The notes under the pieces were generated by a model. The model did no database searches, was not told the DNA's origin, and saw only the letters and a list, made by a program, of their open reading frames with translations. From Myxococcota bacterium (lineage in GTDB: Bacteria > Myxococcota_A > SURF-8), in NCBI GenBank assembly GCA_963674735.2, contig CAXXQS010000002.1, forward strand, positions 1,728,001 to 1,792,000: 64,000 nucleotides of DNA. The letters run 5' to 3'. The position numbers were made by a program, and so were the translations under genes. Below, piece after piece: positions 28,993-39,185 of this stretch. How positions within the stretch are numbered: position 1 is the first letter of the stretch; each line of letters starts with the position of its first letter.

Positions 28993-30816
28993 TCAGGCTT
29001 TGGCGGCGGCCGCCTCCTTGGCCTGCGCGGATTTCTTGCCGATCCACCATTGCTGGGCGATCGTCATCACCGTATTGGCCAGAATATACAAGACCAACCC
29101 GGAAGGCAAGACCAGCATGAAGACGAACATCATCACCGGCATCATGTACATCATCATCTTCTGCTGCTGCGAATCGGGGGTGGGTGTGAGTTTTTGCTGT
29201 ACGAACATCAACACACCTAAAAGCGCCGGGAGAATATAGTAAGGATCGGGACGCACGAGGTCGGTCAACCAGCCGGGAATGAAGGGTTCGTTGTAGAGCT
29301 CCACCGCGTTTTGCAGCATTTTGTAAAGCGCAATGTAGACGGGCATCTGCAACAGCATCGGCAAACAGCCGCCCATGGGGTTGACCCCCTCCCGTTTGTA
29401 CAACTCCATCATCTGCTTGTTGAATTCCTGTTTGTCCTCCCCGTGCTTGGCCTTCAACTCGTCCATCTTGGGTTTGAGTTCCTTCATCTTCTGCATCGAC
29501 TGGAAGGATTTGTAGGTCAAGGGGTACAGAATGAGCTTGATCAGGATGGTCAGAATGATGATCGCGATGCCCCAGTTGTACACGAACTTGTAACTGTATT
29601 TCAGCACCCACAACATGGGTTTGGCCAGTGCGCCCAATACCCAGAAATCCACCGATTCGTCCAGGCGGTGCCCCACCTTGGTCAAGGTGGTGTACTCCTT
29701 GGGACCGATGAACATCTGGTAGGAAAGATCCTTGCTTTCACCGGGCATGACACGCTGCTTTTCCAACATGTGTGTTACCGCCAGCCAGTTGTGCGTCCCC
29801 TCCGTGCCCAAGGCGTCGGTAGAGGCCTGCTGGACGTTCTTGATGGTGATCTGGGAGCGCAGGTCGTCGGGCGGCAGCAGCGACAGCAGGAAATAGCGGT
29901 CATCGATGCCGGCCCATAAAATCTGACCTTTGAGGATCTTGGCGGTCTGCAATTCTTCCTTGTCCGTCTCTTCGTACAATTCGCCGTCGATGAAGGCCTT
30001 GGGAATCTGCAGGTTGAGCGGCATGGAGCCGAAGATGCCTTGTTGCACGTTGGCATCGTTCTGGTGGCTGACGAGGCGGATTTTGGGGAAGAAACTGGCC
30101 GGAGCGGCGGCCCGGTTTTCCACCGAAAGTATCAGGCTGAAGACGTAGTCGCCTTTGAAGGCAAAACGCTTGCGTAACACCACGCCCTGGGGCGTTTCGT
30201 ATCGATAGACCACCGACGTGTCGTCGGCGTCTTCGAGTTCGAAGGTGGTGTCGGGGTCGTAACTGAAATTCGCCTGATCGAATAGGAGCGTGCCGGGAAA
30301 GTTTTCAGGTTCCTTGACCGTCACCACGTCCACCTGGCGACGCTCGTCTTCGGAACCCGGCACCGGTTCGGAATATTTGTCGGATTTCAGGATGAACGAC
30401 TTCAAACGAGCGCCACGGTTGGTAAAGGTGGCGAGGAACTCGTTTGTTTCGATAATCGTATTCTGCTCGGCCGGGACCGGAGCTTCAGCCTTGGCCGGGG
30501 GTTCCGCTTCGAGAGTCGGTGCGGTGTCGGCGCTTTTCTCCTCGGAATCGGCGGCGATGGCCGGAGTGTCGGTCTCCGCGACGGCTGGTGCATCGGATTC
30601 CGCATTCAGCGCGGGCAGCATGCTTTCGGGTTTCTCACCGACGGCCGTCGGCTCGTCGAAACTCGGTTTGACGGCGTCGGGAACCGGGGCTTTTTCGGCA
30701 ACCGCCGGCTTTTTAACCGGCGTCGGCGCTTTGGGCGGCGGCGGATTGATGACGACATTCCACAGGAAGAGGATTCCCATCGAAAGTACCAGGGCGAGAA
30801 TCAGGCGACGTTCCAC
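28993..30816 (-). CDS. yidC: Membrane protein insertase YidC
   Basis: NWGIAIIILT, NPMGGCLPMLLQMPVYIALY, PDPYYILP. Confidence 0.96.
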   Translation of the reverse strand: MERRLILALVLSMGILFLWNVVINPPPPKAPTPVKKPAVAEKAPVPDAVKPSFDEPTAVGEKPESMLPALNAESDAPAVAETDTPAIAADSEEKSADTAPTLEAEPPAKAEAPVPAEQNTIIETNEFLATFTNRGARLKSFILKSDKYSEPVPGSEDERRQVDVVTVKEPENFPGTLLFDQANFSYDPDTTFELEDADDTSVVYRYETPQGVVLRKRFAFKGDYVFSLILSVENRAAAPASFFPKIRLVSHQNDANVQQGIFGSMPLNLQIPKAFIDGELYEETDKEELQTAKILKGQILWAGIDDRYFLLSLLPPDDLRSQITIKNVQQASTDALGTEGTHNWLAVTHMLEKQRVMPGESKDLSYQMFIGPKEYTTLTKVGHRLDESVDFWVLGALAKPMLWVLKYSYKFVYNWGIAIIILTILIKLILYPLTYKSFQSMQKMKELKPKMDELKAKHGEDKQEFNKQMMELYKREGVNPMGGCLPMLLQMPVYIALYKMLQNAVELYNEPFIPGWLTDLVRPDPYYILPALLGVLMFVQQKLTPTPDSQQQKMMMYMMPVMMFVFMLVLPSGLVLYILANTVMTIAQQWWIGKKSAQAKEAAAAKA

Positions 30817-30841
30817 AGGCCCTCTCCTTGAGGTTCGGTCG

Positions 30842-31090
30842 TTAACGGTCGCGTTTCACGCGCGGCCAGCCGTTTTCCACCGGATCGTAACCGCCGGGAA
30901 AAAGCGGGTGGCAGCGTAAAAGCCGAGTCATACTCTTAAGTCCTCCGATGATCAGGCCGTAGCGCGTCACCGCCTCGATGGCGTAGTCGGAGCAGGTCGG
31001 ATGGAAGCGGCAGCGAGGTCCGAGCCAGGGAGAAATGATCCGCTGGTAAAGCCGAACCGGTAACACCGCCAGCCATCTCAGCCACATCAT
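30842..31090 (-). CDS. yidD: Membrane protein insertion efficiency factor YidD
   Basis: YQRIISP...[10 protein letters not shown]...LLRCHP..PGGYDPV. Confidence 0.95.
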
Positions 31091-31461
31091 GCCTGCATCT
31101 CCCGTTTGCGGCGCTGGTGGGCAAAGCGGCGGACCATTGTCTCGAACTCCTTGGCCACCAGATGGAACGGCGCGGGACGGGGGAGCTGACGTCGGGGAAT
31201 GACCACGATGTCCATGCCCTCACCTTCGAAGGGTTGCAGCAGCCGGAACGCTTCACGGCAGACACGCTTGATGCGGTTGCGCACCACGGCGCAGCCGACT
31301 TTCTTGCTGACGATCAGCCCCAAGCGGGCGTGCTCCACTTCGTTCGGCCGCAGTAGAAACACAAAGCAATTCGTGACGATCTTGCGGTTATCGGCCTGTA
31401 CTTTAAGAAAGTGACCGCGCCGCAAAATGCGCCTTGATCGAGGGAAACCGTTTGGTTTCAT
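31087..31461 (-). CDS. rnpA: Ribonuclease P protein component
   Basis: [21 protein letters not shown]. Confidence 0.95.
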
Positions 31462-31619: not shown

Positions 31620-31877
31620 GGCTCACCTCTCCGTTTGTTACCTATAAAAACCCTAATCGCTCAGGGGGCAGAAGTGAAGCATTAATACCCCGCGATGTCA
31701 AGTTATTTTGCCTCACGCTCCCTTGTGCGAGTGCTCGGTGTTTCGCAACGAGCGGGACATCGTATCTTCGCAAACCTTATAACGGAAAAGCCTTGCGAAG
31801 TCATGAAAAATCGTTCAGAATTAGACGGTTTTCCAAGCAGTATCATTACCCAAAATCGACTCAGGCGAAGTGGGGCC

Positions 31878-34031
31878 ATGGCAGAAGAAACTCTGAACCG
31901 AAAAATGCGAATCTTGGTTGTGGACGATGATCGGGAGTTGACCTCCGGTTTTATCAAGCTGCTCGAAGGTGAGGAGTTTGAAGTTCACGGTTTTTACAGC
32001 GGGAAATCGGCTCTGGATGCCATCCAGGAGCGTCCCTACGAGTTTGCCTTCATCGATGGTCTGCTTCCGGGGATCGATGGCTTCAAGCTGTGCGAAGAAA
32101 TCCGTTGGATCAAGCATTCGGAGAAGATGCCCATCGTGATGATGTCGGGAGTTTACCGTGCCAGTACCAGTGCGGTGGAGGCGCGTCAGAAGTATAAGCT
32201 TTTGGATTATCTGGAAAAACCGATCGCACCGGCGGTCATCATCAAACTGTTGCGCAAACATTTCGGCAACGAGTATCCCAAGCCGTTGGATATGATGGAA
32301 AGCGATGGCTTTCACTCCATGATCAACACCTATTTTATGTACGATGCAACGAATCTTCCGTTGATCGGTCGTTTGGAAGCCGTGCCGCTTCCGGTGTTGC
32401 TCAACCAGATCTGGGCCCGCAAACTGACCGGGCAAATGCTGATTTCGTGGAAGAAAGCCAAGAAAATCGTCAGCTTCGAAAAAGGACGGCCGGTGTCGGT
32501 TAGCTCCAATATCATCGGCGAATGCTTGGGGCAGCAGCTCCTCAAAGACTCCGTAATCGATCAAAACCAACTGGATGCGTCGCTTGAGATCATGAAACAG
32601 GTCGTCAAACGCCAGGGTGAAGTGTTGCTGCAGATGCATGCCATCAGTTCCCTGCAATTGGCCGAAGCCTTGCGGCGGCAATTCGAGATCAAACTGTTTT
32701 CCGTGTTTCAATGGCAGGACGCTTCGTACAGCTTCAAGGCCTTGGAGGCTTTGCCGTCGGTTCCCAGTAAAATGGATCTGCATCCCTACACCCTGATTCG
32801 TAACGGCGTGATGCAGCATGTGACGGTCGACCGACTTCAGCTCTGGTTGAAACCCTATCAAAGTGCCGAAATTCACGCCACCGAAAACTGCGAAAGCCTG
32901 ATGCGGGAAGGTGGATTCAATCTGAAGGAGACGCGTTTCGCCCAAAATCTGGACGGGCTGGAGACGTTGAAAGAGGTGCTGGAAACGCCGTTCAAACGCA
33001 AAGATGATATGGCGGCCTTCATTTTCACTCTGATCGCCATCCGTGCCGTACAATTGGGCCAGCCGAAAGAAGACGACAGCGAGGTGGATGGCGAGACAAA
33101 GGTGTTCAACGGCGAACGCGAAGAAAGTCTGCTCGTTGCTCATGCTCACCACTTGCGTGATATCAATCAGGTTCCGACCGAACGAAACGATATTTCCGTC
33201 ATGGGCGCATCGGGAAAAACGCGGGCGATGAGCAAAGAAGACATCGAACGCCTTGAACTGATGCAGATCTTGCAACGGCTGACACCGGAGCAAAAAGGCC
33301 AGTACCAGCGGCTGTACGAATTTTACAAGAAGAACCAGGAAAAAAACTATTTCGAGATTTTCGACAGCGATCGACAGACGCCGATCGAGCAGATTAAAAA
33401 GCGGTTTTTGGAATTGGCCAAAACCTACCACCCCGACACGATCGCCCATCAGGATGTGCCCGAGATTCGGCGGTTGGCGGATGAAATATTCACGCTGCTT
33501 TCCAAGGCCCATGAGAATCTGACCAACAAGAAGAAGCGGGCCGAATACATGGAATATCTCAGCGGGGGCGGCAATGAAGACGCCACCGAGGAAGTCGCCA
33601 AAATCCTGGCCTCCGAAGAGCATTTCATGGAGGCCAAAACCGCCATCAAGCGCAAAGATTGGACGGCCGCCAAGCGTTCCCTGCTGGAAGCGCTGAAACT
33701 CAACTCGAACGAAGGCGAGTATTATTGCGAGTTGGGTTGGGCGCACTTCAACCTATCGGCCAACGACATGGTTTCGCGGCAGGAAGCCATCAAGTATCTG
33801 GAAAAAGCCATCGAGGTGACGCCGCGACTCGCCGACCCGCATTTTTATCTGGGGTCGATCTACAAGTCCGTGGGCGATCTGGGTAAGTCGGTGGATGCCT
33901 TCAGAGAATGCCTGCGCATCGATCCCAAGCACCATCGTGCCAAAAGCGAGATGCGGCTATTGAAAATGCGCCGCGAGGAAGAAGTCAGGGCGAAGGCCAA
34001 GGGCGGCCTTTTCTCTCGCTTCAAGAAGTGA
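31878..34031 (+). CDS. Response regulator receiver-DUF4388-DnaJ(J domain)-TPR multidomain protein
   Basis: ILVVDDD...DGLLPGIDG...EKP receiver; KLTGQMLI...VSFEKGRP; KTYHPD J motif; C-terminal TPRs. Confidence 0.85.
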   Translation: MAEETLNRKMRILVVDDDRELTSGFIKLLEGEEFEVHGFYSGKSALDAIQERPYEFAFIDGLLPGIDGFKLCEEIRWIKHSEKMPIVMMSGVYRASTSAVEARQKYKLLDYLEKPIAPAVIIKLLRKHFGNEYPKPLDMMESDGFHSMINTYFMYDATNLPLIGRLEAVPLPVLLNQIWARKLTGQMLISWKKAKKIVSFEKGRPVSVSSNIIGECLGQQLLKDSVIDQNQLDASLEIMKQVVKRQGEVLLQMHAISSLQLAEALRRQFEIKLFSVFQWQDASYSFKALEALPSVPSKMDLHPYTLIRNGVMQHVTVDRLQLWLKPYQSAEIHATENCESLMREGGFNLKETRFAQNLDGLETLKEVLETPFKRKDDMAAFIFTLIAIRAVQLGQPKEDDSEVDGETKVFNGEREESLLVAHAHHLRDINQVPTERNDISVMGASGKTRAMSKEDIERLELMQILQRLTPEQKGQYQRLYEFYKKNQEKNYFEIFDSDRQTPIEQIKKRFLELAKTYHPDTIAHQDVPEIRRLADEIFTLLSKAHENLTNKKKRAEYMEYLSGGGNEDATEEVAKILASEEHFMEAKTAIKRKDWTAAKRSLLEALKLNSNEGEYYCELGWAHFNLSANDMVSRQEAIKYLEKAIEVTPRLADPHFYLGSIYKSVGDLGKSVDAFRECLRIDPKHHRAKSEMRLLKMRREEEVRAKAKGGLFSRFKK

Positions 34032-34146
34032 AAACCAAGAAATTACAAGATATTTCGGCGACGTAAGCGGTTGCCCCGAAGGCGTGGTCGGTGACGGTCC
34101 GGAGACCGCTACCCGCGAGGGGATCGTGTAGTTGCGTGCGGCCGCT

Positions 34147-34797
34147 TTACGGGCAGGCGTGGTCGCTGCAATGCCACAGGCCGGTTTTGCATTCGCAGCG
34201 GTTGCAGCCGGTATCGCGACCGGCAATGGCGCCTTCATCATCGCAGGCGGTCGCCTGGGCGACGGGTTCCACACAGCTTTCGCCGTCATCCGCCGCTTCG
34301 GCTTCCAGACAGGCCATCACGCATGCGTTGCAATACAACGCTTCGTCGGTGGCGCAAAGCCACTCGGCCGAATCATTGGAGCAGGCCTCGCAATCATCGA
34401 AACACTCCGGCGCGGGGATTTCGCAGAGGGATTGGTCCTTTACAATGCCGTCAAGTTCGCTCGGTGGCAAACATGGCGACAGCGTGCATCCATCGTCACG
34501 AAAATGGGCAATCCCGTAATGTTCTTCTTTACATGCAAGTCCCAAGTTCGGCTTGCGACAGTGCATCATCGACGGCGCCGCCGAAACGCTTTCGCAGGCC
34601 ATCTGGCATTCGTTGGCATAGACGTAGCCGTCCTCACCGCAGATACCGGATACCGTGGAGGCGATCCATCGTGTCTCGGAAAGCTGGCAATCGCCGACGC
34701 AAGACGTATAGGCATCGATGTCATTTTCGTCGCCACAGGCAGAAAAAAGAAACAAAGAAATGACAATGAAAACGAAATATTCTTGGATTTTTTTCAT
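34147..34797 (-). CDS. Cys-rich lipoprotein with Kazal-like x2 and pacifastin-like domains (putative serine protease inhibitor), allele 1
   Basis: Lipobox FSAC; ICGEDGYVYANECQMAC; LCATDEALYCNACVMAC; C-x12-CNRCEC-x2-G-x3-CSDHAC. Confidence 0.75.
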   Translation of the reverse strand: MKKIQEYFVFIVISLFLFSACGDENDIDAYTSCVGDCQLSETRWIASTVSGICGEDGYVYANECQMACESVSAAPSMMHCRKPNLGLACKEEHYGIAHFRDDGCTLSPCLPPSELDGIVKDQSLCEIPAPECFDDCEACSNDSAEWLCATDEALYCNACVMACLEAEAADDGESCVEPVAQATACDDEGAIAGRDTGCNRCECKTGLWHCSDHACP

Positions 34798-34812
34798 CTT
34801 TACACCTCCTGA

Positions 34813-36155
34813 CTATTCGTCGCAGCGGACAAAGGGATAGCCGTTATCTGTATGCTCGTCGCAATCCAGCCCCGTCTTTTCACGTATCCAGGAAATTTTG
34901 CGGTCGATTCGGCAAGCGACTTGATCTGCACCCGTTGGGGCAGCGCAATTTGATGGTTCTCCATTTGCACAAACCTGCCTTGCGGCACCTGAATGGATTG
35001 CATCAAAAAGCCACAAGTTACCTGTGTACCTCGCCCAACCCGTTCCAGAGTCACCAAAGCAAGTTCGGTAATTATCGTTAGCATCATCCTTAACCATGTA
35101 ACTATATACAGAATCAAGCGAGAAACTTCCCCATCGCTTAACACCATCTCCAGAGTCAATGCACATGGAATTGTATCCACTTCCCCAAATCGTTTGAGCC
35201 CATCCTTGCGAGGGTGTTCCATTATACAGTCGGGCTTCGCTTATATTGCGATTCCAGCCAGGGGAAAAATATATCAGGCCAATGTCATCGTTTGTATCAA
35301 CCGTTCCTCCACCGCCCGAGTAGTCAATATGCATACGAAACCAAGCTGTCTTTGCATTATCACACTCGGTATGGCCTGCGATTGAATCAGTGATACATTC
35401 CTTCGCGCCGGTATTTTTATTCCACCAGTAAACTTGCAGACAACCGGAACATGTTGCAGCCAAATCTGGATCATCATTCGGAATGGCCATATCAATGCAA
35501 TGCGCTGCTGTTAGAATCCAATGATCGTTAATAATAATTCCATTGCAATAGCTAGGCTCTGGAGCATTTGGAATATTCCAATAGTTAACCCATATCTCCA
35601 CCACACTCTGGCTTGAATTCCAACTGGGAGTATCCCCCTTCCAGATCATCGGAACGATTTCGCCTTCTTCGGTGTCATGGTCGGGTTCTTCGTGCATCGA
35701 CGCTTCCGAGGCGAGAAAGGCCTGTTCCTCCGGGTCCACCGGTTCGATGGCCGGATCGGGCTCGAAGAATTCTTCGCGGGTGTTCAGGTAGTTTTTGGCC
35801 TGGATCGCCAGATTGGCCTCGGCGCAGGTCGCCACCTCGGTCAGGCCAGTCAGTTTCACGGCAAGCGGGTTTTTGCTCAGGAAACGGTTGATGGCGTCGT
35901 AATGGTAGCGGTAATCGACGCCGTTGATGCGGCAGATGCCGAGATGCTCTTGCGAGTAGTCGTCGGGCGGCATCTCGCCTTCCTCGTAGCCGCAATGCCC
36001 GCCGTCGGAAAACGGTTCCACATCGAAACCGGAAATCAGCTCATTCAAGGCGATTTCATCGGGCGGGTCGATGCTTAAGGGGGGGGGTCACCACCGCATC
36101 CGTGGAACAGAAAAACCGCCAAAGCCGCACTTGCAAACACCATTACTCGCCGCAT
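34813..36155 (-). CDS. Trypsin-like S1 serine protease lipoprotein, allele 1; frameshifted at a C9 tract as sequenced
   Basis: WILTAAHC, DDIGLI, CFGDSG triad; signal MRRVMVFASAALAVFLFHGC from ATG 36155 (AGGAG RBS) joins the 34813-36048 ORF only if the tract is C7/C10/C13. Confidence 0.82.
36079..36087 (-). repeat. Poly-C tract (C9) in protease 1, candidate phase-variation switch
   Basis: G9 on + strand; reads GAC CCC CCC CCT TAA. Confidence 0.7.
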
Positions 36156-36200
36156 GAGCATCTCCTATCGATTATACATCCAATATGAGACATGAAAGAA

Positions 36201-36229
36201 ACTTTAGCAGTCGAATGAGGAGGTGTCAA
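36201..36229 (-). promoter_or_regulatory. sigma70 promoter of cassette 1
   Basis: TTGACA-N17-TAAAGT with TG extended -10; additional TATAAT at 36171-36176. Confidence 0.7.
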
Positions 36230-36399
36230 TCGAAAAAAGCGAGCGAAGGCCAAGGGCGGCCTTTTCTCTCGCTTCAAGAAGTGAAAACCAAGAAATTACA
36301 AGATATTTCAGCGACATAAGCGGTTGCCCCGAAGGCGTGGTCGGTGACGGTCCGGAGACCGCCACCCGCGAGGGGATCGTGTAGTTACGTGCGGCCGTT

Positions 36400-37077
36400 T
36401 TATGGGCAGGCGTGGTCGCTGCAGTGCCACAGGCCGCTTTTGCATTCGCAGCGGTTGCAGCCGCTGTCGCGACCGGCAATGGCGCCTTCATCATCGCAGG
36501 CGGTCGCCTGGGCGACGGGTTCCACGCAGCTTTCGCCGTCATCCGCCGCTTCGGCTTCCAGACAGGTCATCACACAGGCATTGCAATACAGCGCCTCGTC
36601 GGTGGCACAAAGCCATTCGCTCGTATCGTCGGAGCAGGCCTCGCAGTCATCGAAACATTCCGGTGCGGGGATTTCGCAGAGGGTGGAGTTCTCGGTAGGC
36701 CCGACATCACTGTCCCCAACGTCCTCACATAACTGAAGCGTACAACTATCAGATTGAAAAATCGCAGTATCGTAGTGCTTACAGCTATGGGACAGTTCCG
36801 GACGGCGGCAGTACATCATCGATAGCGCGGCTTCATCGCCGTAACATTCCATCTGGCATTCATTGGTGTATATGCTTCCATCTTGCCCACAGATACCAGA
36901 TTCATATAGACTCATTAGGCTGTCTTCCAGTTCTCCACAGGTTTCCAGGCAGACGGCCAAAGGATCGTTGTCACCGTCGGCATCGCCATCTCCGAGCGAG
37001 TCGTCATCCCCGCCGCAGGCGGAAAGGAGAAATACTGACAAGATAATGAAAATAAAATTTTCTTGTATTTTTTTCAT
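36400..37077 (-). CDS. Kazal-like x2 and pacifastin-like inhibitor lipoprotein, allele 2
   Basis: Lipobox LSAC; ICGQDGSIYTNECQMEC; C-terminal ~93 aa nearly identical to allele 1. Confidence 0.75.
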   Translation of the reverse strand: MKKIQENFIFIILSVFLLSACGGDDDSLGDGDADGDNDPLAVCLETCGELEDSLMSLYESGICGQDGSIYTNECQMECYGDEAALSMMYCRRPELSHSCKHYDTAIFQSDSCTLQLCEDVGDSDVGPTENSTLCEIPAPECFDDCEACSDDTSEWLCATDEALYCNACVMTCLEAEAADDGESCVEPVAQATACDDEGAIAGRDSGCNRCECKSGLWHCSDHACP

Positions 37078-37092
37078 TTTTCCACCTCCAGG

Positions 37093-38441
37093 CTATTGGT
37101 CGCAACGGACAAAGGGATAGCCGTTGTCTGTATACGACGGACAGGACAATCCTGTTTTGTCCCTTATCCAGGAAATCCTTCGATCAATACGACAACCGAC
37201 TTGAGCCGCACCGGTGGGTGCTGCACAGAAAGTTCTTCCGTTAACATCACCGCCATTACTACAAGTACCTTTTGCAGATGCTGAGTGAATGGCATCGAAA
37301 AGCCACAGATTTCCCGTATACTTTACCCAGCCTCCACCGGAATCGCCGGAACAGACTCGATAATCATCACCAGCGGCCACATAATCAACCACCGTATAAC
37401 TGGTCACGGATTCGAGAAAAAAAGCGCCTACCCTTTTAGTACCCAATCCAAGTGGAGTGCATAAGGAATTGAATCCAGCTCCCCAAATCGTTTGAGCCGA
37501 GTACCAGGGCGGTGTGCCGTTAAAAAGTCGAGCTTCACTGATGTTTTCGTTCCAGCCCGGCGAGTAGTATATAAGAGCGATATCGCTTCCTGAGTCCGGA
37601 TTGCCAGCATAGTCGATATGATAACGAAAAGTGGCGGTTTTTCCTGTTTGGCATTCGGCATGTCCCGGCGTTGAATCGGTAATGCACTCTTTCGTTCCCG
37701 TGTTTTTATCCCACCAGTAAGCCATCAGGCAACCCGAGCAACTATAAGATTTGTCGGGATCGTTGGGGGGAACCGCCTGATCGACACAATGAGCCGCCGT
37801 TAGAATCCAGCGATCATTGATAACAATCCCTGTACAGGTATTTCGATCATTAGGATCATCCCATTTGCCGGAATGAACTAGAACTACACTTTGGCTGGTG
37901 TTCCAATTCGGGAAATTGCCCGTCCAGATCATCGGAACGATTTCGCCTTCTTCGGTGTCATCGTCGGGTTCTTCGTGCATCGACGCTTCCGAGGCGAGAA
38001 AGGCCTGTTCCTCCGGGTTCACCGGTTCGATGGCCGGATCGGGCTCGAAGAATTCTTCGCGGGTGTTCAGGTAGTTTTTGGCCTGGATCGCCAGATTGGC
38101 CTCGGCGCAGGTCGCCACCTCGGTCAGGCCAGTCAGTTTCACGGCAAGCGGGTTTTTGCTCAGGAAACGGTTGATGGCGTCGTAATGGTAGCGGTAATCG
38201 ACGCCGTTGATGCGGCAGATGCCGAGATGCTCCTGCGAGTAGTCGTCGGGCGGCATCTCGCCTTCCTCGTAGCCGCAATGCCCGCCGTCGGAAAACGGTT
38301 CCACATCGAAACCGGAAATCAGCTCATTCAAGGCGATTTCATCGGGCGGGTCGATGCTTAAGGGGGGGGGGGGTCACCACCGCATCCGTGGAACAGAAAA
38401 ACCGCCAAAGCCGCACTTGCAAACACCATTACTCGCCGCAT
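37093..38441 (-). CDS. Trypsin-like S1 serine protease lipoprotein, allele 2; frameshifted at a C12 tract as sequenced
   Basis: WILTAAHC, SDIALI, CSGDSGG; same signal and propeptide as allele 1, from ATG 38441. Confidence 0.82.
38362..38373 (-). repeat. Poly-C tract (C12) in protease 2
   Basis: G12 on + strand; again one C short of frame. Confidence 0.7.
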
Positions 38442-38486
38442 GAGCATCTCCTATCGATTATACATCCAATATGAGACATGAAAGAA

Positions 38487-38515
38487 ACTTTAGCAGTCGA
38501 ATGAGGAGGTGTCAA
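38487..38515 (-). promoter_or_regulatory. sigma70 promoter of cassette 2
   Basis: Identical TTGACA-N17-TAAAGT. Confidence 0.7.
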
Positions 38516-38528
38516 TCGAAAAAAGCGA

Positions 38529-38570
38529 GCGAAGGCCAAGGGCGGCTTGTTTTCTCGTTTCAAGAAATAA
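38529..38570 (+). other. attR-like site: displaced original 3' end of the J-domain gene
   Basis: GCG AAG GCC AAG GGC GGC TTG TTT TCT CGT TTC AAG AAA TAA = AKAKGGLFSRFKK*, synonymous with 33990-34031. Confidence 0.8.
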
Positions 38571-38582
38571 TGTATCCCGGAA

Positions 38583-39185
38583 TCACAGAATACCCCAGCG
38601 CTTTTGAATGATTCGCGATACGGCGAACAACACCAGCGCGGCAGCGGCGACGAGCAGCAGGGCCGCCGGATGGTAGGGGGCGATCTGCCAGCGCATCAGC
38701 AGCGGGCTGTAGGAAGCCAGCGACGCCAGAACGACCGCCAGGGCGAACAGACGCGATCGGGGCGCTTTGTCTCCCAGGTGGGCGAAAGCCAGCGTGGCGG
38801 CAATGGCGGCAAAGGTGATGGCGAAGAGGTTGCCGGGATGCACCCAGGGATCGAAATTGTCGAGGGAGGTCTCGTGCCAGGCGATGAAGGCTTTCAGGGT
38901 GGCAAAACGGTAGGTGACCGCGCTACTCGAAAGCAGCAGCGACAACAGCAGGGTCCAAGGCATCCGCTTGCTGGAGTCGACCAGCGGTTTGCCGCGAAAG
39001 GTGATGTGTTGCGGAAGATTGAAGCTGCGAAAGACGATGGCCAGTGCGGCGAACAGAAACACCGCCAGGGTCACTTCCTGCGCCTGCAGCAGAATCGGCC
39101 AGTAAGGGTCGGGAAGACGCTTGGCCAGTCCGAGCATGGTGAAAGTGAGAGTCAGGCTGGCAAGCATCACGTACAGCATCGGCAT
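38583..39185 (-). CDS. Hypothetical multi-pass membrane protein
   Basis: About six hydrophobic segments; start uncertain (ORF track extends to 39374). Confidence 0.55.
   Translation of the reverse strand: MPMLYVMLASLTLTFTMLGLAKRLPDPYWPILLQAQEVTLAVFLFAALAIVFRSFNLPQHITFRGKPLVDSSKRMPWTLLLSLLLSSSAVTYRFATLKAFIAWHETSLDNFDPWVHPGNLFAITFAAIAATLAFAHLGDKAPRSRLFALAVVLASLASYSPLLMRWQIAPYHPAALLLVAAAALVLFAVSRIIQKRWGIL

Follow-up and report, generated by a model that had tools for sequence, protein, structure and literature searches.

A duplicated operon of S1 protease and Kazal/pacifastin-like lipoprotein genes in a Myxococcota bacterium, with divergence bounded by domain borders and a possible poly-C gate

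A stretch of 64,000 nucleotides (nt) from the genome of a Myxococcota bacterium (lineage Myxococcota_A, SURF-8; assembly GCA_963674735.2, contig CAXXQS010000002.1, positions 1,728,001 to 1,792,000 of the forward strand), which we call the window, harbors two tandem units, A and B, on its minus strand. Each unit encodes an S1 serine protease and, with 15 nt between the stop codon of the first gene and the start of the second, a cysteine-rich lipoprotein built of Kazal and pacifastin-like domains, the predicted inhibitor of the protease. This organization into two cassettes, including the TAAHC, D and GDSG motifs of the protease, had been recognized in an original prediction made from the letters of the window, and the open reading frames (ORFs) were found as described. 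In the whole genome both genes are present in two copies, namely those of the window. Proteases A and B agree at 308 of 417 aligned positions, the inhibitors at 143 of 227. The features of the locus are compiled in Table 1.

Table 1. Features of units A and B and of their borders (positions refer to the window)
Feature	Position	Strand	Description
Protease A	34813-36087	-	424 aa open from the poly-C tract; TTG start at 36048 (ORF 34813-36048)
Inhibitor A	34147-34797	-	216-aa lipoprotein, lipobox LFSAC
Protease B	37093-38373	-	426 aa open from the poly-C tract; TTG at 38331 (ORF 37093-38331)
Inhibitor B	36400-37077	-	225-aa lipoprotein, lipobox LLSAC
Promoter-like site, cassette B	38487-38515	-	TTGACA, 17 nt, TAAAGT; TG before the second hexamer; inside the 5' arm
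Promoter-like site, cassette A	36201-36229	-	Same sequence as in cassette B
Signal ORF, cassette B	38358-38441	-	ATG 38441; probable lipoprotein signal MRRVMVFASAALAVFLFHGCGGDPPPP; TAA end; AGGAG upstream
Signal ORF, cassette A	36075-36155	-	ATG 36155; signal peptide as in B; ..GCGGDPPP, then TAA
Poly-C tract, unit B	38362-38373	-	12 C (poly-G on the plus strand); separates signal frame from protease frame
Poly-C tract, unit A	36079-36087	-	9 C
5' arm, unit B	37923-38546	-	Promoter, signal, tract and propeptide; counterpart in A: 35640-36260
3' arm, unit B	36293-36683	-	Inhibitor module 2 and 3' untranslated stretch; ~93% identical to 34040-34430
Hairpin core, copy 1	33994-34007	+	Within the last codons of the convergent plus-strand gene 31695-34031
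Hairpin core, copies 2 and 3	36247-36260; 38533-38546		Border repeat units

The assignment of the first gene to the S1 family, made in the original prediction, was confirmed by a search with the Pfam profile Trypsin (PF00089, cut-off 20.6 bits), which gave 23.7 bits for protease A, where the match covers residues 167-191 only, and 40.2 bits for protease B. A profile of the family matched solved S1 proteases with E values of 7e-9 and weaker, and the catalytic motifs TAAHC, DI(A/G)LI and GDSG (H181, D250 and S331 of B) are invariant in an alignment of six sequences. In both proteases a propeptide of ~135 aa lies upstream of the catalytic domain. The sequence P(M/L/Y)IW(K/T)G is kept in four of four close members, ~28 residues before profile position 24, and the zymogen is probably cleaved near the junction of ..PM and IW(K/T)G. 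In the profile alignment an arginine of the family, located in ..YR(V/T)C.GDSG, aligns with Asp189 of TMPRSS11D and TMPRSS2. Arginine at position 189 suggests an S1 pocket that would prefer acidic residues. An AlphaFold model of protease B calculated from the six-row alignment reached a mean predicted local distance difference test score (pLDDT) of 40.9 and was not used. The sole match in NCBIfam, to the FusH esterase, was far below the cut-off and was dismissed.

The inhibitor consists, from its N-terminus, of Kazal-1, a pacifastin-like domain lacking two cysteines, Kazal-2 and a second pacifastin-like domain. Its N-terminal and C-terminal halves are homologous (hhalign probability 98%, E 3e-13, 77 columns), which, combined with the domain evidence, gives the architecture (Kazal + pacifastin-like) x2. 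Inhibitor A exceeded the cut-off of Kazal_1 (24.7 versus 21 bits) and also that of Kazal_2. A profile of seven family members matched the solved Kazal inhibitors rhodniin (E 6.1e-5), SPI-1 (1.3e-3) and PSTI (2.5e-3; positions 122-161), and its matches to rhodniin, SPI-1, PSTI and infestin span both Kazal positions. The same profile matched the pacifastin SGPI-1 within the C-terminal domain (2xtt, E 2.8e-3, positions 177-209; 1kj0, 0.018). These matches agree with the original proposal of a lipoprotein composed of canonical serine protease inhibitor domains. The Kazal cysteines and the motif CGxDGxxYxNxC are invariant or nearly so in ten family members, and the pacifastin-like pattern C-x12-CNRCEC-x2-G-x3-CS-x3-C is readable in both window copies. 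Among more distant relatives, Pacifastin_I scored 60.5 bits in P0030 and 60.6 bits in P0098 and was also above its cut-off of 27.9 in P0119; the orthologue P0015 on the metagenome contig L009 remained below it with 26.2 bits. Searched exhaustively with a profile, 1.84 billion representatives yielded 145 matches at E <=0.001, five of them at <=1e-30; a few are full-length relatives, and the rest are multi-Kazal proteins.

Structure prediction gave a weak hint only. The fold model of the inhibitor had a mean pLDDT of 63.5, with the pacifastin-like part under 50, and a Foldseek search with it against the PDB returned nothing at E <=0.001. The best small-domain match was the Kazal domain 3pis_A (probability 0.99, E only 0.17; TM score 0.73 on the target, root mean square deviation 2.3 Å over 33 columns), while the whole model matched follistatin-type multi-Kazal proteins best, again weakly. 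In the ESM Atlas the best score for inhibitor B was 0.80, which we regard as a lead only. The P1 residue of Kazal-1 we take, following the ovomucoid rule, to be the second residue after the second cysteine; at this putative P1 position, Glu or Asp is found in six of nine family members. For the pacifastin-like domain, the loop rule Cys5-X-P1-P1'-X-Cys6, as it appears in the accessible part of PMC13388995, would make the P1 residue of the window proteins an Asp. The same part of that source lists pacifastin-like domains in 24 bacterial accessions (2026) and names there neither a function nor a protease neighbor.

The similarity between the two units is distributed in a mosaic. Apart from three single nucleotide polymorphisms (SNPs) and three extra C in B, the 5' arms are identical. 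Dense mismatch begins at positions 35639 and 37922, the second base of the codon after ..GEIVPMIW, and the centre is only ~60-65% identical at the DNA level. At 34430 and 36683 (..LCEIPAPEC), where module 2 of the inhibitor starts, identity is back and extends past the stop codon to ~34040, with 27 mismatches per 391 nt in this 3' arm. The divergent block spans both genes, comprising the catalytic domain and inhibitor module 1, and its borders are domain borders; within the inhibitor, module 1 is the variable block and module 2 the conserved 3' arm. The original prediction had placed both limits correctly: it described promoter, signal and propeptide as nearly identical up to GEIVPMIW, which now reads as three SNPs and a difference in tract length, a strongly divergent and AT-richer mature protease and first Kazal domain, and a return of identity at LCEIPAPEC.

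Substitution rates between A and B were determined for each segment by Nei-Gojobori counts. The propeptide gave a synonymous rate (dS) of 0.011 and a non-synonymous rate (dN) of 0.006, corresponding to one synonymous and two non-synonymous changes. In the mature protease the proportion of synonymous differences (pS) was 0.83, i.e. saturated, and dN was 0.29. The N-terminal part of the inhibitor (module 1) is the fastest-evolving segment, with a pS of 0.79 and a dN of 0.56; in Kazal-1, four of 15 residues are identical in the loop between the second and third cysteine (C2-C3) versus 18 of 28 from C3 to C6. The C-terminal part in the 3' arm gave a dS of 0.31 and a dN of 0.037. The composition of the segments differs as well. 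The arms have a high G+C content at third codon positions (GC3), 0.76 for the propeptide and 0.72 for module 2, versus 0.41-0.57 across the centre and 0.41-0.44 for the mature protease by itself; the long ORFs of the genome have a mean of 0.66 (sd 0.08, n 1300). Both orthologues show a GC3 of 0.35-0.42 along the whole protease gene, their propeptides ranging from 0.35 to 0.40. Since a high GC3 is confined to the arms and a low GC3 extends throughout the orthologues, the arms and not the centres are the derived part.

Between A and B the mature domains are 64% identical, and to the orthologues 47-51%. In a tree of the mature protease rooted by distant relatives, A and B are sisters (support 86/95), and they are sisters again in a tree of inhibitor module 1 (94/98), where the branch length is 3.57 for A and 0.30 for B. 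The differing ages of the two arms, together with their GC3, fit repeated GC-biased gene conversion between tandem paralogues and not the import of a foreign module; from this pattern, the arms appear to have been homogenized by conversion. Neither copy is an orphan tip, each being a complete operon equipped with promoter and signal. The units are bordered by a hairpin core with exactly three matches in the window (0.06 expected by chance), spaced 2,253 and 2,286 nt apart. As copy 1 lies in the last codons of the gene 31695-34031, the duplication junction is placed there, and each unit carries a copy of the 3' coding end of this gene. A search of positions 33500-39000 against Rfam yielded no family.

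Copy 1 of the hairpin core encodes the terminal residues (..KAKGGLFSRFKK) of the gene 31695-34031 (+), whose 778-aa product joins a response-regulator receiver and DUF4388 to a DnaJ domain and TPR repeats. Besides this protein, an M3 oligopeptidase, an RNase D-like protein and an unassigned membrane protein are the neighbors of the locus. Further genes of the window lie nearby at 28993-31461 (-); from their translations, we presume them to be homologues of yidC, yidD and rnpA.

In the assembly, the signal and the protease body are separated by the poly-C tract. Behind AGGAG, the signal frame (ATG 38441 and 36155) opens MRRVMVFASAALAVFLFHGCGGD, continues with the proline codons of a pure C run and ends with TAA. 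The original prediction, which mentioned no frame break between signal and protease, is to be corrected on this point: in the assembled sequence the signal meets TAA just after the tract. The protease body is in the -1 frame relative to the signal, open from the C run for 426 and 424 codons in B and A, respectively, without another stop. One more C (10 in A and 13 in B) would fuse signal and body in both copies, and the joined reading ..GCGGDPPP(P)LSIDPPDEIALNELISGF.. aligns with the N-terminus ..SCGDAPPAQIDSTQDLIIGF.. of the in-frame protein of L009. The second orthologue, from genome G005, is likewise an in-frame lipoprotein. The reading frames of both inhibitors are intact. A programmed -1 ribosomal frameshift was considered, C CCC CCC being a formal slippery heptamer and the body lying in the -1 frame, and was rejected for want of a stimulator: starting at the tract, a stretch of 116 nt shows no more stable folding than shuffled sequences (z -0.64).

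Within the propeptide arm, GAGGAAGG (35971-35988 and 38254-38271, minus strand) stands four bases before an in-frame ATG (MPPDDYS..), from which a gene caller began protease A (P0002, 386 aa). A signal-less protease product may start at this codon.

The pairing of protease and lipoprotein emphasized by the original prediction is kept in all loci of the close subfamily that were found, with a cysteine-rich lipoprotein directly downstream of the protease in four of four (A, B, L005 and L009). This subfamily is small. Its proteases make up four of the ten matches in a search of 5.8 billion proteins. They occur in two of 401 genomes of the phylum, the window's own and G005, and on one metagenome contig, L009; a scan of genome contigs returned only a G005-like metagenome-assembled genome. 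The six pairwise distances over the four pairs showed no clear trend between protease and inhibitor. In the window's genome, Kazal_2 gave 23 matches at five loci, 19 of them above the cut-off, versus none in 14 control genomes, which suggests that Kazal-domain proteins have expanded specifically in this lineage. Outside the window, this genome (G000) contains very large open frames with many Kazal_2 repeats at C2:636919-639537, C2:1131621-1133219 and C1:2327011-2327244 (1203, 1100 and 741 codons), which are counted in the 23 matches along with the two inhibitors. In the literature searched, no bacterial S1 protease accompanied by a Kazal or pacifastin lipoprotein came to light, which is not proof of absence; of the papers listed, PMC13388995 alone is relevant to the subject.

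We interpret the locus as a self-guarding protease-inhibitor operon that was duplicated in place, has been subject to domain-bounded conversion and possibly carries a poly-C gate; as one reading, we consider this probable, though far from assured. Each operon would make an exported S1 protease zymogen, probably a lipoprotein with a removable N-terminal propeptide of ~135 aa, and a dedicated lipoprotein inhibitor of two (Kazal + pacifastin-like) modules. Located in the same compartment as the protease, the inhibitor would shield the producer's own envelope. Judging from domain content and gene order, the lipoprotein is predicted to inhibit its partner protease with cognate specificity. Following duplication of the pair with a junction at the hairpin element, catalytic domain and inhibitor module 1 would have diverged together, resulting in two specificities, while gene conversion from copy to copy would have preserved the likeness of the promoter-signal-propeptide arms and of the module-2 arms. 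The conversion tracts end at domain borders, a plausible reason being that partial conversion would leave protease and inhibitor mismatched, and these limits of the block are the best remaining argument that catalytic domain and module 1 have to match. If the tract lengths are real, an export-competent protease would need a one-base slip in DNA or RNA, and the tract would act as an on/off gate.

A bolder version of this idea, which we consider doubtful, makes the tracts contingency switches. The two surface proteases of different specificity would be silent at the level of export with the inhibitors on, and the cell would arm itself by one-base slippage. Catalytic domain and module 1 would be co-adapted, a mismatch of the pair would be harmful and would halt conversion at the domain borders, and the system could serve self/non-self discrimination or predation.

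A number of observations weigh against the self-guarding operon. Some of them concern the inhibitor. The expectation that profile searches would detect both inhibitor families was borne out only for Kazal and only in A: inhibitor B stayed below both Kazal cut-offs (Kazal_2 20.9 versus 22.8, Kazal_1 16.9 versus 21 bits), and Pacifastin_I (PF05375) gave no direct match in either window inhibitor at E values up to 1. The C2-C3 loop of Kazal-1 comprises 15 residues instead of the usual 5-7, which makes the P1 assignment uncertain, and the putative P1 of inhibitor A is Leu, though protease A has Arg at position 189. The case for gene conversion is one of pattern. As to distribution, a distant relative of the protease (G269) has no such inhibitor as a neighbor, and full-length genes of the inhibitor family occur away from any nearby protease at L111 (G006), at L120 (two in tandem) and at L125 (G002); no close protease was found in G002, which is 86% complete, or in G006. 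Finally, both tracts need the same +1 correction, as a systematic undercall of homopolymers would produce, and with its 12 C the tract of unit B exceeds every other G/C run of the genome. The proteases, as assembled, have no export signal and could therefore equally be dead or mis-assembled genes.

The last points lead to the most serious competitor, which concerns the switch alone. According to it, errors of assembly created the frame breaks, the tracts in fact contain 10 and 13 C, and both genes are intact and code for ordinary lipoprotein proteases that are made all the time. We think that this may well be so, but rate it as the lesser possibility. Besides the shared +1 correction, it is favored by the fact that long G/C homopolymers are the usual sites of indel errors, by the origin of the genome, a three-contig assembly from metagenome-like runs, and by the two in-frame orthologues. 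On the other hand, of the 11 G/C runs of at least nine bases in the genome, five others (9-11 bases) situated in long ORFs are all in frame, the remaining four lying in short or ambiguous contexts. Frameshift signatures were not enriched at homopolymers either (21 of 1000 homopolymers of at least seven bases versus 109 of 3000 random sites). Moreover, an independent 621-nt k-mer contig of the Logan collection (runs X1 and X2) spans 35640-36260 with 9 C and no gap, its depth of ~2x the flanks marking it as a collapsed repeat, and a 9-C tract also occurs in run X3, which is from another sample, on a contig that breaks off 3 nt farther on. X1 and X2 may be the source data of the assembly, such contigs drop variants, and positions 38082-38395 are uncovered in both runs. 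The poly-C tract is either a switch, by phase or slippage, or an error of the assembly; on balance, the out-of-frame state is likely to be real. Long G runs are also found in frame within long open frames of G000, at C1:2017169-2017179 (G11) and C2:2167048-2167057 (G10).

We regard it as unlikely that the lipoprotein is not aimed at its neighbor at all, acting instead as a general, ecotin-like envelope guard against foreign serine proteases or as an adhesive or matrix protein, with synteny reflecting co-regulation. Family members standing alone at three loci would suit such a role, as would the Kazal_2 matches at five loci, very large multi-Kazal frames among them, and the weak resemblance of the whole model to follistatin-type proteins. 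However, a partner gene follows the protease at four of four close loci, in the window at a distance of 15 nt, the divergent block crosses both genes with shared borders, and the acidic putative P1 residues stand opposite an Arg at position 189.

Slightly less likely still is the explanation put forward by the original prediction, in which a surface protease acts as effector against competitors or non-kin, module 1 provides immunity, and both are swapped as one cassette, as in the polymorphic toxin-immunity systems of the contact-dependent inhibition (CDI) and Rhs type. It accounts well for a variable block reaching from the codon after the propeptide to the start of inhibitor module 2 between near-identical arms, and for the high dN of module 1. 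This module is also a hotspot in the tandem inhibitor paralogues of G002 (L120:657-2163), where changes cluster in the module-1 pacifastin-like domain (proportion of non-synonymous differences 0.161 versus 0.019-0.029 elsewhere). Even the stand-alone inhibitor genes could be read as orphan immunity genes. Nevertheless, three defining features of a CDI/Rhs-like exchange fail, and the analogy is not supported. A and B are sisters in both trees with a saturated centre, and share one fold at 64% identity, both copies being complete operons with promoters of their own. A scan of the neighborhood and its domains disclosed no T5, T6, T7 or other delivery domain, gene or system, only a Sec-type lipoprotein signal and housekeeping neighbors. 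No mobile element is present at the locus, and a search of a plasmid collection was without match. In addition, only the arms are high in GC3, inhibitors occur without a protease, and the arm ages (dS 0.011 versus 0.31) fit repeated conversion better than a single swap. The family is also so rare that no population of alleles is visible. It is improbable that the protease genes are decaying pseudogenes inactivated by the tract, only the inhibitors being still in use: both proteases are indeed out of frame with the signal next to intact inhibitors, which function alone elsewhere, but their 424-426 open codons contain no further stops or shifts, both catalytic triads are intact, dN in the centre is far below the saturated dS, and the propeptide arm has acquired no more than its three changes.

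Several bacteria possess a secreted protease and a specific inhibitor that are encoded adjacently and co-expressed, the inhibitor remaining with the producer and preventing self-damage; examples are staphopain/staphostatin, AprA/AprI and the Inh proteins of Serratia and Erwinia. The operons of the window resemble these pairs in having the genes of a protease and a proteinaceous inhibitor side by side. Unlike them, they code for a probably lipid-anchored S1 protease and a lipoprotein of Kazal and pacifastin-like domains; in addition, the operon as a whole exists in two copies with mosaic divergence, and inhibition is a prediction. E. coli has in its periplasm ecotin, an inhibitor of S1 proteases that is broad-range and not known to be paired with a protease gene of its own. 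Ecotin shares with the window lipoproteins the role of an envelope inhibitor of trypsin-fold proteases in a Gram-negative cell, a role that for the latter is predicted, whereas the fold of the window inhibitor is unrelated and the gene is paired with a protease. With the animal Kazal (MEROPS I1) and pacifastin (I19) inhibitors, the cysteine patterns agree (CGxDGxxYxNxC and C-x12-CNxCxC-x2-G-x3-C(S/T)-x3-C); the profile matches to solved members are weak but consistent. The window proteins differ in being bacterial and lipid-anchored and in repeating a module that contains a domain of each type, with two cysteines missing from the first pacifastin-like copy.

To CDI and Rhs systems the likeness lies in a conserved 5' part, a variable 3' part, a variable downstream partner and a sharp border at a domain junction. 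Here, in contrast, delivery machinery is missing, the parts that vary share one fold and have diverged as paralogues, each copy being a full operon, and variation is limited to half of the partner. Homopolymer contingency loci, with poly-G or poly-C tracts in surface-protein genes, are known from Neisseria, Campylobacter and Helicobacter. Common to them and the window is a long G/C homopolymer just after the signal peptide that sets the frame, the tract being the only indel between the arms. In the window, both copies are in the same off frame, and the state is known from assembled tract lengths in an environmental lineage.

The locus would provide bacterial Kazal and pacifastin-like domains with a concrete partner, an S1 protease encoded 15 nt upstream. 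Bacterial pacifastin-like domains were reported only in 2026 and, in the accessible part of that report, without a function (PMC13388995). Two diverged pairs in one genome constitute a natural two-by-two test of inhibitor specificity, and the locus illustrates cleanly how conversion tracts, as we read them, end at functional domain borders. A Kazal/pacifastin-like bacterial lipoprotein in what is probably a self-guarding protease-inhibitor operon is unusual in itself. The possible poly-C gate is the most interesting point: if the tracts are real, they would extend homopolymer gating, here of protease export, beyond the usual host-associated pathogens.

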